64,000 nucleotides of DNA from Escherichia coli (GCF_003334385.1 NZ_QOWN01000004.1), one strand, 5' to 3'; counted from the first letter of the stretch, positions 38,829-42,945 are shown. The notes: generated by a model not told the origin, from the letters alone. Translations and numbers: made by a program.

Positions 38829-39329
38829 TTAGAGTGGTTGTTTAAGTTCGGTTAAAACCATATCTATGGTGTATATAATAATAAGTACACCACTAATCGG
38901 GATGCTCATATAGATATATCCCATTTGCCAGCCTAAAGCGGGCGAGGTCTGACCTGAATCGAATGTATCCATCGTTAATAGCCCACCACCATATACCATA
39001 ATGATGGTTGCGAAGATAATAACGATAATCTGAATACACAAAAATAAATGACGTCGGGCTTTTCCTTTCAGCATCATAGGTAGCAGGTCAATCGCCAGAT
39101 GCCGGTTTTGCCCTGCGGTGTATGCCCCACCAAAAAGTCCAAGACAAATAAAGAGCAAACGGCTGAGTTCATCTGTAAAAATACTGGGACTAGTAAATAT
39201 AAATCGTGCAGCCACCTGCCACGTCACACATGCCACGATGATCGCCAAAATGGTAATGTTCAATGCTGCAAGCAGAGCATTAATAGATCTAATTATATTT
39301 CGCATAGTGATTAACCTTTGCAATATCAT
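38829..39329 (-). CDS. TRAP transporter small permease (DctQ family)
   Basis: ORF track; 166 aa, four hydrophobic helices; ATG overlaps stop of the upstream gene (ATGA); alternative start ATG at 39305. Confidence 0.7.
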   Translation of the reverse strand: MILQRLITMRNIIRSINALLAALNITILAIIVACVTWQVAARFIFTSPSIFTDELSRLLFICLGLFGGAYTAGQNRHLAIDLLPMMLKGKARRHLFLCIQIIVIIFATIIMVYGGGLLTMDTFDSGQTSPALGWQMGYIYMSIPISGVLIIIYTIDMVLTELKQPL

Positions 39330-41407
39330 TCATCCTGTGGCTGGTAAATTGTCCCATTAAGAAAACCAGGCCAGTTTTTTTCAAACCAAATACCTCGGAT
39401 AATAGGAAACTCACGAACAGGTGTTTCTCTGACGTGAAAGATACCGTTGCAATAATGAATAAGTAGTTTATCTTTTTTATCCTCAGTACGCTCTGAACGA
39501 AAGCGCCAGGCATCACAAAAACCATTTCGTGTTTGCGGAATAGAATTTCCATCCCTGTCGAGAATAATACGTGCTCCCCGACTACCACCACCTGCGTCAA
39601 TATAATGCGTTAATTGCGTTAATACGGCGGCAGAAGTCAGTGCCATATGCCGCCACATAAACAGCTCGGCAACTTCACCCACATGTTTGATAGCCAATCC
39701 ATGCCGTTGGACAAATTCGCTCAATAGCAGGGCATCGCGAGTGGCGCGTCGGACTTTATCGGCATGGCAAATAAATCCCGCATGGTCAGACATTCGTGCC
39801 TGAATTTTTTCTCTCACAACCGACAACGGCATCCCGGTCCCGTTATCGTGCGCCTGAGTAATGATCTCTCTTATAGAAGCCAGTGTAGGAGCTACCAGCT
39901 GTGCTATATCTCCATCAATATTCCGCTTTTGCGTGCAACCAATAAAACGTGCCAGACGAACAGCAAAAACCTGCCCGGCATTCAATGCTGCACCACCAGG
40001 GCGAGTGACGCCGTGTGTGCCAGCAACTTCCCCCACGGCGAAACAGCCGGGCAGGGAGGTTTGTCCCCAGATATCCACTTCAATGCCGCCATTCATATGC
40101 TGATTATTCATGGCAAACTGCAAAGGCTGTGTGGTGAGATCGTAACCGTGCATCTTATACAGCGAGATAGACAGCGGATTCATTCGTTGCAGCCGTTCGA
40201 TGGGCGATGGTGCCAGAGCGTCGTTATTTTCCAGATACGCGCGAACGTCGTCGTCCAGTCGATCTAATGAGAACGGCAGGTCACCCGGCACCGCTTCAGG
40301 ATTGCGATTGAAATCCATAAATACCTGACGCCCTGATTGCTGCTCTTGCGCTACTGCCATATCTAACAAGCTGGAGCCAAAATCCATCACCCGAGTGGCG
40401 TGGAACGGCCACTGATAGCCTTTACGGAAAATGTTTGAAGCCAGCTCCTGGGTGGTGCGATAGTAATCCGCGAGGAAGTTATACTCGTTACCCTCAGCAT
40501 CCACGGAATAGATATACGGGATCACCTGTACATAGGTGCCGGATAAATTCCACGGAAACGTGCTACGCGGCGTGCCTATACCAAACTGGCTTTCGGTCAG
40601 ATTGGTTAGCGTCAGGCCTTCCTCCAGCGCCAGCCCCAGCGAGCCAAAACATTTGTGTGGGTACACACTGTCGCGATAAAGCTCGCCAGGCCCTCCTGTT
40701 GCCAGTACCACATTGGGCGCAGTCACAATTGCCAGCCCCCAAGGGTTATGGGCGCGATGACCGGTCGCGAGGATTGCCCCCGCAACACGGTCTTCGCCGT
40801 TTTCGTCACGCTGATGCAGCAGTTTAATCACTGTTGCACAGGTCAACACTGGAATGGCGAGGCGCTGTACTTCTTCCAACAGCACTTTCACCATTAACCT
40901 TGAGGTACGCGGCCCACACGAGGTTGCACGCCCGGCTTCGTCATGGTCGGTTTGATAACGAAGAATCGCGCCATAGCGATCTTCCGGTAATTCCAGACCA
41001 AGATATTGCAACCCGCCAAGAGTGTGCAGAGAACCTACCGCTTCGACATAAGCGGTGTCGTGATCCATCGCCCCACCGCTCGCCAGTGCCTCTGCCAGTT
41101 TGGTGAAGTTGTCGCCGTTGCCCGCGGTAGCGGCGGTAAACAGTGTCTGTTTATCGGAACCAGAACATGCCGACGTCCCCATATATAACCCGGCGGTGGC
41201 GATCAGCACATTTTGCTGGCGGCGTTTAAGTTCCACAGCTGCACGCAGCCCGGCTGCACCACTGCCGACTACCAGGGCATCTGTTTGCCAGAGTGGGTAA
41301 TCAACACCGTCTACCGTGACAACCCATGCGGGCTCTGCCTGTGCAAAACCCTTTGGGAAAGTAACGTGCGTCAGCGCATCAAGGATGGTGTCATCAAGCT
41401 GACTCAT
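39326..41407 (-). CDS. FAD-dependent oxidoreductase, fumarate reductase/succinate dehydrogenase flavoprotein-like (FAD_binding_2 type) with C-terminal extension
   Basis: ORF track; 693 aa; N-terminal dinucleotide fold ALVVGSGAAGLRAAVEL and C-terminal FAD motif GCFAVGEVAGTHGVTRPGGAALNAGQVFAVRLARFI. Confidence 0.8.
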   Translation of the reverse strand: MSQLDDTILDALTHVTFPKGFAQAEPAWVVTVDGVDYPLWQTDALVVGSGAAGLRAAVELKRRQQNVLIATAGLYMGTSACSGSDKQTLFTAATAGNGDNFTKLAEALASGGAMDHDTAYVEAVGSLHTLGGLQYLGLELPEDRYGAILRYQTDHDEAGRATSCGPRTSRLMVKVLLEEVQRLAIPVLTCATVIKLLHQRDENGEDRVAGAILATGHRAHNPWGLAIVTAPNVVLATGGPGELYRDSVYPHKCFGSLGLALEEGLTLTNLTESQFGIGTPRSTFPWNLSGTYVQVIPYIYSVDAEGNEYNFLADYYRTTQELASNIFRKGYQWPFHATRVMDFGSSLLDMAVAQEQQSGRQVFMDFNRNPEAVPGDLPFSLDRLDDDVRAYLENNDALAPSPIERLQRMNPLSISLYKMHGYDLTTQPLQFAMNNQHMNGGIEVDIWGQTSLPGCFAVGEVAGTHGVTRPGGAALNAGQVFAVRLARFIGCTQKRNIDGDIAQLVAPTLASIREIITQAHDNGTGMPLSVVREKIQARMSDHAGFICHADKVRRATRDALLLSEFVQRHGLAIKHVGEVAELFMWRHMALTSAAVLTQLTHYIDAGGGSRGARIILDRDGNSIPQTRNGFCDAWRFRSERTEDKKDKLLIHYCNGIFHVRETPVREFPIIRGIWFEKNWPGFLNGTIYQPQDE

Positions 41408-42945
41408 GCATCCTCCATCGGCGTAAACAGGCTACTTTCCATCAGGCGTGGGTGCTTGATAATTGGACGGAAAGCCATATACGGCAGAATGTCGCGCTCA
41501 ATCTCCACACCCGGCGCGATTTCAATTAATTCAACGCCTTCTGCCGTTAACTGGAATACTGCGCGTTCAGTGATATACAACACTTCCTGACCACTTTGCT
41601 GTGCGTAGGCGGCGCTAAAAGTGATTTTTTCCACCTTGGTAACCAGTTTAGGGATTTGACCTGACTGGGCGATATGCAAGCCATCTGGTGTTATATCGAT
41701 CTTGCTGCCTTTAGCGTCGAACGTGCCGCAGAACACCACTTTACGGGCATTTTGCGCAATTTCGAGAAATCCGCCGGGGCCAATCAGATTGCCATTGAGA
41801 TGGGAGACGTTGACGTTACCGTACTGATCCATCTCTCCCATGCCGAGGAAGGTGATATCGATCCCTCCGCCACTGTAGAACTCAAATTGATCGAGTGATG
41901 GAATAATGGCATCGGCGTTGCGGGCGCAGCCGAAAAACGCATCATCCAGCATCATGCCGTTATGTACGCCTTGCTCGACGCTCAGCCATAAACTTTGGTA
42001 AGGAACGCCTTCGCGCAGCGCTACTCCTGGAATGCCGCCGGGAATACCAAAGCCAAAGTTGGTTGAAGCGCCAGCTACCAGTTCGCGTGCTGCCCGACGG
42101 GCAATCAGGCGACGTACCGGATGACTAACCAGTTCAATAGCGTCGTTAGAACTCAGACGGCGATGTTGGCCGCTGATGGTCAGGTCGTAACCGCCAAGAT
42201 AGGTTTGTGGTTGTTCGCGGTGTTCAACGATGCCATCAACCAGAATGCCCGGTAATTTGACCCGGCGTGGTTCAATCGCGCCAGCTTCCAGCACATCGCG
42301 TACCTGTACGAACACTTTGCCGCCGCTGTTGTGTGCTGCCAGCGCCATGGAATAGCTATCCATATCAATCGCTTCTTCTTCAAGGCTGACGTTGCCTCGA
42401 GGATCGGCATAAGTGCCACGCAAAATCGCGTAATCCACTTTGAAAGGGCGATAACGAAGTTTGGTTTCACCGTCGATTTCAATCAGTTCTACCAGCTCGT
42501 CGGTAGTGCATTCATTCGACTTACCGCCGCCATTGCGTGGATCAACAAACGATCCCAGCCCAACGTGGGTAAAAAGCCCCGGACGTCCGGCGCCGATCTC
42601 CCGTAGCAGTGCCTGAATCACGCCACCAGGAAAGCAGTAGGCTTCAATCGTGTTATTTTTTACCAGCGCCTGCATTTTGGGCGACCAGGTAAAGTGCCCG
42701 GCAATAATGCGTTTGAGCATCTCTGCGTGCGCAAAACGATTAGTGCCTTTGCAGTCGCGATCGCCAATACCCAGCGAGTGGATTAGCGTCAGGTCGCGAG
42801 GGTGTCCGGTTTGCAGGAAACGCGCTTCAATAGCAGCCAGAATATGGTCGGCTTCCACCATACCGCCGCCGTTACCGCTAATAGCAATAGTCGCACCGTC
42901 CTGAATTTGCGCCGCCAGTGCCTCGGCGGTTGTTATCTTACGCAT
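41404..42945 (-). CDS. fused family-I CoA-transferase (acyl-CoA:acetate/3-ketoacid CoA-transferase, YdiF-like)
   Basis: ORF track; 513 aa; resemblance to single-chain alpha+beta CoA-transferases; AAGGA SD overlapping upstream stop. Confidence 0.75.
   Translation of the reverse strand: MRKITTAEALAAQIQDGATIAISGNGGGMVEADHILAAIEARFLQTGHPRDLTLIHSLGIGDRDCKGTNRFAHAEMLKRIIAGHFTWSPKMQALVKNNTIEAYCFPGGVIQALLREIGAGRPGLFTHVGLGSFVDPRNGGGKSNECTTDELVELIEIDGETKLRYRPFKVDYAILRGTYADPRGNVSLEEEAIDMDSYSMALAAHNSGGKVFVQVRDVLEAGAIEPRRVKLPGILVDGIVEHREQPQTYLGGYDLTISGQHRRLSSNDAIELVSHPVRRLIARRAARELVAGASTNFGFGIPGGIPGVALREGVPYQSLWLSVEQGVHNGMMLDDAFFGCARNADAIIPSLDQFEFYSGGGIDITFLGMGEMDQYGNVNVSHLNGNLIGPGGFLEIAQNARKVVFCGTFDAKGSKIDITPDGLHIAQSGQIPKLVTKVEKITFSAAYAQQSGQEVLYITERAVFQLTAEGVELIEIAPGVEIERDILPYMAFRPIIKHPRLMESSLFTPMEDA

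Follow-up and report, generated by a model that had tools for sequence, protein, structure and literature searches.

Two ATGA strings in an accessory catabolic operon of Escherichia coli: one stop/start overlap and one misassigned start codon

In a 64,000 nucleotide stretch of Escherichia coli DNA (GCF_003334385.1, NZ_QOWN01000004.1; hereafter the window), the letters ATGA are found at both ends of a gene encoding an FAD-binding flavoprotein: at the upstream end, where a CoA-transferase gene stops (junction 1), and at the downstream end, next to dctQ, the small permease gene of a TRAP transporter (junction 2). Do both strings overlap the stop codon of one gene with the start codon of the next, and is translation of the three genes coupled thereby? 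An original prediction, made from the sequence, answered yes to both. The locus is an accessory catabolic operon of the E. coli chromosome and consists of eight minus-strand genes between rplI and ytfB. The overlap at junction 1 is real, and we consider it likely that this operon is expressed from a single mRNA and that DctQ starts at position 39305 and not at 39329, where the ATG overlapping the flavoprotein stop begins.

Gene calls were taken from the RefSeq/PGAP annotation of an identical strain and combined with NCBIfam family searches. In operon order the genes encode an SDR oxidoreductase, a TIM-barrel protein, an enoyl-CoA hydratase, the CoA-transferase, the flavoprotein, DctQ, DctM and DctP, and the intergenic spacers between them are 9, 9, 9, -4, 20, 42 and 52 nt. 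The coordinates of all features are collected in Table 1.

Read on the minus strand, junction 1 is ...GATGGAGGATGC-ATGA-GTC. The TGA of the CoA-transferase gene occupies 41406..41404 and the ATG of the flavoprotein gene 41407..41405, and RefSeq/PGAP annotates the same 4-nt overlap. The ATGA is preceded by GGAGG in 12 of 12 enterobacterial loci, that is, the window and 11 others, including those of a divergent E. coli lineage, a second E. coli variant, E. marmotae, E. albertii, Klebsiella oxytoca, K. pasteurii, two Salmonella variants, Citrobacter tructae and one further enterobacterium. At every enterobacterial locus the flavoprotein start is annotated or called identically, and the residues M1 and S2 are invariant in eight aligned orthologs. 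The GGAGGA Shine-Dalgarno (SD) motif of the flavoprotein gene lies 3 nt from its ATG; its calculated pairing with the anti-SD sequence, -9.3 kcal/mol, is the strongest of the operon, and the GGAGG core is invariant across 11 aligned loci. In the betaproteobacterium Uliginosibacterium the orthologs of the two genes are separated by a 12-nt gap, and the overlap is thus a feature of the lineage and not a requirement of the system. Judged from these alignments, the overlap at junction 1 is real, as had been predicted, and also conserved within the Enterobacteriaceae and textbook-ordinary. The fixed stoichiometry derived from it is not supported, given the gap in Uliginosibacterium and a gene pair that is differently arranged or absent around most distant flavoprotein homologs.

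Translational coupling at junction 1 is plausible. A distance of -4 is the commonest among 2,987 unidirectional gene pairs of E. coli (Huber et al. 2023, PMC10666635), and coupling here would therefore be unremarkable; 707 unidirectional pairs fall between -8 and +6 nt (PMC10666635). When native E. coli ATGA pairs were tested, four of five were coupled (Huber et al. 2019, PMC6728339), and removal of the SD at such pairs mostly lowered reinitiation rather than exposing independence (PMC6728339). Junction 1 resembles the tested pairs (hyfHI, astDB, ydbH/ynbE as well as menDH, with bioBF as the exception) in its 4-nt overlap and in the SD located inside the upstream gene. It differs in that such overlaps are enriched for subunits of one complex, which the CoA-transferase and the flavoprotein are not known to be.

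The main alternative is that there is no coupling at junction 1: the flavoprotein would be initiated de novo on GGAGGA, and the overlap would reflect compact gene packing. Several observations count in its favor and against coupling. One of the five tested ATGA pairs, bioBF, is initiated de novo (PMC6728339), and the strong GGAGGA, the best SD of the operon, could likewise drive de novo initiation at junction 1. Uliginosibacterium manages with a gap. The stability of a hairpin predicted to mask the SD at junction 1 does not exceed that of shuffled sequence (z = -0.51), and we found no covariation or compensatory changes in it among 11 orthologs. The classical coupling device, in which GAGGAUG would pair with CAUCCUU, was accordingly set aside as unsupported; in 7 of 10 distinct sequences the positions of pair 57-81 can no longer pair. 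Against the alternative stand the four coupled pairs out of five and the effect of SD removal on reinitiation. We regard de novo initiation without coupling as unlikely, though well worth keeping in mind, and retain coupling at the genuine overlap as the plausible reading.

At junction 2 the string itself is present: the flavoprotein TGA occupies 39328..39326, and the ATG at 39329..39327 lies in the DctQ frame, which no stop interrupts in the window. The original prediction was right about the string and wrong about the start codon. In every record inspected, PGAP/RefSeq places the DctQ start at the ATG 39305..39303, 24 nt downstream, which gives a protein of 158 aa and a spacer of 20 nt, and the dominant DctQ protein cluster (1425 member sequences) is 158 aa long. 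We aligned DctQ with homologs from Salmonella, Klebsiella, Morganella, Xenorhabdus, Rhodocyclaceae, Uliginosibacterium, Pseudovibrio and others. Eleven of 13 homologs begin at a Met aligned with M9 of the longer version; of the other two, one starts 7 residues before this point and one 4 residues after it. The 8-residue extension is conserved in none of the 13.

Two related loci with the same TRAP genes point the same way. In the divergent E. coli lineage (L002), whose flavoprotein is 96% identical, the flavoprotein stop is TAA and the site reads ATAA; codon 4 of the supposed DctQ extension is an in-frame TAA. In Salmonella (L091) the flavoprotein stop is also TAA, so that the site again reads ATAA, and the downstream start has the same AAGG-N9-ATG arrangement as in the window. 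The sequence AAAGGTTAAT-N-ACTATG at the downstream start is kept in both. The only SD-like sequence available to the ATG at 39329 is CAGGAU, at a spacing of 2-3 nt. In other taxa the spacer between the flavoprotein and DctQ genes is 12, 20, 90 or 227 nt, with no overlap. On the basis of the PGAP start, the 158-aa cluster, the homolog N-termini, the stops in L002 and the TAA in Salmonella, we conclude that the ATG overlapping the flavoprotein stop is a start-codon misassignment and not the DctQ start. By comparison with these loci, the ATGA at junction 2 is best described as a by-product of an ancestral TAA to TGA stop switch in the main E. coli lineage. Since the start was wrong and the real spacer is 20 nt, coupling of DctQ to the flavoprotein is not supported; spacers of about 20 nt almost abolish termination-reinitiation (PMC10666635).

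Two points speak for some use of the upstream ATG. Nearly all E. coli carriers have the ATGA at junction 2, with the exact 41-mer core in 1423 of 1451 genomes, and the frame from 39329 is open to the real start, so that some initiation there, yielding a DctQ longer by 8 residues, is possible. A version of this is dual initiation, mainly at 39305 with minor reinitiation at 39329, which would give an extended isoform (MILQRLIT) and weak coupling. Termination-reinitiation at ATGA works with weak SDs (PMC6728339), the real DctQ start has a weak SD, and most E. coli carriers have the TGA allele. The extension is not conserved, however, and the prevalence of the allele fits clonal inheritance of a neutral stop-codon switch equally well. 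We consider dual initiation improbable and take 39305 as the DctQ start.

How often such strings occur was assessed in the annotation equivalent to the window, where 15 of 63 complete coding sequences end in TGA and four in ATGA (tamA, the CoA-transferase, the flavoprotein and yjfN). An annotated start overlaps two of these four ends, in tamA/tamB and CoA-transferase/flavoprotein; yjfN is not followed by a gene in the same direction. False overlaps can thus arise when the start is set at the first ATG in frame behind a stop, with ATGA at 4 of 15 TGA stops here. The finding as first stated matters little: the overlap type is the commonest in E. coli, and one of the two cases is an artefact of open reading frame calling.

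The first three junctions of the operon (SDR to TIM-barrel, TIM-barrel to hydratase, hydratase to CoA-transferase) have spacers of 9 nt each and follow the typical pattern of E. coli pairs spaced by +9 to +12 nt. This class comprises 203 pairs, 7% of the unidirectional pairs, and 194 of the 201 characterised ones are polycistronic (PMC10666635). The stop codons of the 9-nt spacers run into the following SD, as TGAGG, TAAGGA and TAAGGA.

We suggest that the enzymes and the transporter are probably one transcription unit, as originally predicted. The eight genes lie on one strand, with short spacers of -4 to 52 nt, one upstream regulatory region and a strong, likely bidirectional terminator hairpin at the end. 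A consensus scan gave 13 promoter-like sites, compared with 15.1 expected from shuffled controls, and 15 terminator-like sites, within one standard deviation of the 11.2 +/- 3.9 expected from shuffles. Internal promoters or terminators in the operon were rejected on these counts, with no excess of promoter-like sites and a terminator-like count inside the scatter of the shuffles. In the intergenic region between the SDR gene and the divergent TetR-family gene, an inverted-repeat search found a conserved palindrome. Its core, CAACCAAC-N-A-NN-TGGTTGATCTTT, does not vary among 10 of 10 enterobacterial loci in an alignment with a mean column identity of 75%, and a role of the palindrome as TetR operator is probable.

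Between dctM and dctP (37456-37473, minus strand) lies a weak, GC-rich hairpin, TGGCGGCAcctgCCGCCA, with the T-rich TATTTATT behind it. Only the E. coli and Salmonella TRAP loci have it; L090 and K. pasteurii lack it. It might act as an attenuator of dctP expression or as an intercistronic stabiliser, and is a point to set against the single-unit reading.

The transporter genes differ between lineages. The same five enzyme genes are found at the rplI-ytfB site in K. oxytoca, Salmonella, C. tructae, E. marmotae and E. albertii, where a 425-aa MFS permease of the D-galactonate-transporter subfamily is encoded 50-125 nt downstream in place of the TRAP genes. Loci of E. coli, Salmonella, K. pasteurii, a further enterobacterium and Uliginosibacterium have the TRAP version. 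A further E. coli variant has the MFS layout and has lost the hydratase gene. The predicted tie of uptake to catalysis, taken as a fixed link to this transporter, is thus not supported. Homology of the window to the MFS-type loci stops 28 nt before the flavoprotein stop, and identity to them drops from about 90% to 79% at about 40050, covering the last 750 nt or so of the flavoprotein gene. To the Salmonella TRAP locus, identity climbs from about 78% to 88-96% from about 40300 onward. The 3' third of the flavoprotein gene (39354-40300) has this history in common with the swapped uptake module (36403-39354). The G+C content of dctQMP is 0.41-0.445 versus 0.50-0.54 for the enzyme genes. Junction 2 had been considered as the exact cassette boundary; this was revised, as divergence already begins inside the 3' end of the flavoprotein gene. 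From these identity profiles, the 3' part of the flavoprotein gene and the uptake genes (TRAP or MFS) appear to form a cassette exchanged between enterobacterial lineages. This speaks against a translational link of flavoprotein and DctQ that is precise and conserved.

Such an exchange also raises the possibility that the TRAP genes were imported with a promoter of their own, making uptake and catalysis separate transcription units. The lower G+C content of dctQMP and the distinct history of these genes and the flavoprotein 3' part, closer to Salmonella than the region upstream, would fit, and in K. pasteurii and Uliginosibacterium the spacers, 90 and 227 nt long, leave room for promoters. In the window, however, the spacer is 20 nt, and the consensus scan found no minus-strand promoter-like site in the 3' end of the flavoprotein gene. 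Because the exchanged segment begins inside the flavoprotein gene, dctQMP has no separate upstream region here. A separate TRAP promoter therefore seems to us quite improbable, and a single transcript the better description.

The scheme first proposed, with both overlaps functional, CoA-transferase, flavoprotein and DctQ coupled in a chain at fixed ratios and uptake tied to catalysis, can claim that both ATGA strings exist and that the ATG at 39329 is in frame without a stop and nearly fixed in E. coli carriers, but is very improbable given a DctQ extension that nearly all aligned homologs lack and none conserves, its interruption by a stop in L002, the lack of the ATG in Salmonella, the spacers of 12-227 nt elsewhere, an SD-like CAGGAU placed only 2-3 nt from an ATG that PGAP never uses, and the MFS permease 50-125 nt downstream in sister lineages.

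We propose the following model for expression of the operon with a single overlap. The divergent TetR-family regulator probably represses the operon, whose transcript is most likely a single mRNA running from the intergenic region beside the TetR gene to the hairpin next to rplI. The TIM-barrel protein, the hydratase and the CoA-transferase, with 9-nt spacers whose stops run into AGGA-type SDs, would be initiated on their own SDs, as in the +9 to +12 nt class. For the flavoprotein, ribosomes that end on the CoA-transferase can plausibly reinitiate at the ATGA, and de novo initiation on GGAGGA is also possible. DctQ, DctM and DctP would use their own SDs, at starts 20, 42 and 52 nt past the preceding stop.

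Table 1. Features of the catabolic operon and its surroundings, in window coordinates
Feature	Position	Strand	Basis or remark
Likely bidirectional terminator, 12-bp GC-rich hairpin with flanking A- and T-runs	36371..36397	.	Between dctP and rplI
TRAP substrate-binding protein DctP	36461..37432	-	TIGR00787, 246 bits (cutoff 175)
TRAP large permease DctM	37485..38786	-	TIGR00786, 458 bits (cutoff 268)
TRAP small permease DctQ, 158 aa, N-terminus MRNIIR	38829..39305	-	PGAP; homolog N-termini
AAGG, SD-like motif of the real DctQ start, 9 nt before it	39315..39318	-	Pairing weak, -3.4 kcal/mol
Junction 2, ATGA string at the flavoprotein stop	39326..39329	-	ATG is not the conserved DctQ start
FAD-binding flavoprotein, 693 aa, SdhA/FrdA/NadB superfamily	39326..41407	-	Assigned at fold and superfamily level
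Junction 1, genuine ATGA stop/start overlap	41404..41407	-	Sequence, PGAP, conservation
YdiF-like family I acyl-CoA:acetate/3-ketoacid CoA-transferase	41404..42945	-	PDB 2AHU; NCBIfam matches
GGAGGA, SD motif of the flavoprotein gene	41411..41416	-	Inside the final CoA-transferase codons
Enoyl-CoA hydratase/isomerase family protein	42955..43731	-	Family searches; PGAP start 43731, not 43737
Xylose-isomerase-like TIM-barrel protein (sugar phosphate isomerase/epimerase family)	43741..44583	-	PGAP
SDR oxidoreductase, first operon gene	44593..45384	-	NF009386, 413 bits (cutoff 250); PGAP start
Conserved palindrome ATCAACCAaccagaTGGTTGAT(CTTT), putative TetR operator	45449..45474	.	TetR-SDR intergenic region; inverted-repeat search
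TetR/AcrR-family regulator	45597..46244	+	Divergent from the operon; PGAP, NCBIfam TetR-type matches

The flavoprotein scores below every NCBIfam equivalog cutoff, the best values being 125 bits versus 718 for TfrA and 107 versus 639 for NadB. Its AlphaFold model has a pLDDT of 89.6, and the best matches among solved structures are FrdA/SdhA, with TM values of 0.64-0.79 at about 17% identity. The FAD_binding_2 fold is common to it and to FrdA/SdhA and L-aspartate oxidase, and the HxxGG and Rxxx motifs of the FAD domain appear to be kept, as they fall in invariant alignment columns. Unlike FrdA/SdhA, for which the E. coli proteins have 573-588 residues, the flavoprotein is about 90-120 aa longer, and the operon contains no gene for an iron-sulfur or membrane-anchor partner. 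At least 565 relatives were confirmed in species-representative genomes; the family has the motifs YQTDHDE, KGYQWPF and NNQHMNGG and is widespread, occurring in Rhodobacteraceae, Rhizobiales, Planctomycetota, Lentisphaerota and Verrucomicrobiota. By these scores and motifs, the flavoprotein belongs to a well-conserved family of its own and is not an equivalog of FrdA/SdhA or NadB. We did not identify a characterised member of this SdhA-like family. In the searchable library, which is not the whole field, no paper dealing with the locus turned up, and nothing relevant on the protein accessions, SMc04130 or 7VPF.

In Proteobacteria, Planctomycetota, Lentisphaerota and others, the flavoenzyme family recurs with the same neighbours, the SDR and TIM-barrel genes. 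Around the homologs examined (L004-L081), SDR, TIM-barrel and Gfo/Idh/MocA genes often adjoin, and CoA-transferase and hydratase genes only sometimes. The neighbourhoods of distant homologs are mixed, with sugar-type genes (Gfo/Idh/MocA oxidoreductases, LacI regulators, sugar ABC permeases) as well as CoA-type genes (acyl-CoA dehydrogenase, EtfAB, MaoC). A specific substrate assignment was rejected on account of this mixture.

The CoA-transferase matches E. coli YdiF (2AHU) over its full length (residues 6-508, E 1e-113). Its N- and C-terminal halves match subunit A and subunit B models, respectively, which identifies it by homology as a family I enzyme with fused alpha and beta halves. It is a paralog of YdiF and is found in a different gene context.

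The TRAP set is complete, with DctQ, DctM and DctP encoded together, and Pfam PF04290 is found on the DctQ homologs. The nearest solved relatives of DctP are PDB 4ovr, 4x8r, 4n8y and 4n15 (E 1e-66 to 1e-71). Of these, 4X8R binds glucuronate and 4N8Y galacturonate (PMC11668362), and hexuronate binding by the solved relatives is described in PMC11668362 and PMC7660916. In sequence, the solved substrate-binding proteins of the hexuronate TRAP group (4X8R, 4N8Y and 4N15; Salmonella STM3169-3171 is a further system of this group) are the closest to the operon DctP. Such systems have uxuAB/uxaC as neighbours, whereas CoA-transferase, hydratase and flavoprotein genes take that place here. The kinship of DctP with hexuronate-binding proteins, together with the D-galactonate-type MFS permease as the alternative transporter, suggests, with low confidence, a carboxylated, sugar-acid-like substrate. 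It is conceivable, at somewhat less than an even chance, that the operon encodes a new CoA-dependent route for a carboxylated sugar-acid-like or hydroaromatic substrate, built around an unstudied, widespread flavoenzyme and served by cassette-exchanged uptake.

The window is 100% identical to many E. coli chromosomes. With a 9.9-kb query that covers the cluster, we found at least 80% of it in 1448 of 5426 complete E. coli genomes (about 27%). The locus is thus a modest lead of its own, as a variable catabolic operon with an interchangeable transporter in about a quarter of E. coli genomes. Strain K-12 (L094) lacks the island (window 36403-45842) and has yjfZ in its place; what remains is the 3' part of the TetR gene, the pseudogene ytfA, of which the TetR gene of the window is the intact counterpart, and a 102-bp SDR fragment. 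Two apparent E. coli fusions of CoA-transferase and flavoprotein (P0002, P0034) are in-frame deletions that remove junction 1 and parts of both genes. They were rejected as a hint of a physical complex, being deletion alleles, and the operon is decaying in some E. coli strains.

The SDR oxidoreductase has 4da9 as its nearest solved structure, and the TIM-barrel protein matches the uncharacterised structures 3qc0 and 3ju2 (SMc04130) with an E value of 3e-84. A scan of 35500-47000 against Rfam gave one match only, far under the gathering score.

The hydratase gene has two in-frame ATGs (ATGATCATGAGT); the mechanically called open reading frame starts at 43737 and the PGAP gene at 43731. The SD TAAGGA lies 5-6 nt before 43731 but abuts 43737, and this is probably a second case in which the first ATG is not the start.

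In the E. coli variant that lacks the hydratase gene (L087:5303-5463), a MaoC-type (R-specific) hydratase is encoded after the MFS gene (L087:10506-10985). MaoC genes are also present in Uliginosibacterium and in a betaproteobacterial locus (L093:2143-2592; L010:1827-2333). The MaoC gene looks like a non-orthologous replacement or supplementation of the hydratase step. An EamA gene is present beside the MFS permease in some MFS-type loci and absent from others. The TetR gene and ytfB converge, and their 3' ends overlap by 17 nt (46228-46244), as they do in all enterobacterial loci fetched.

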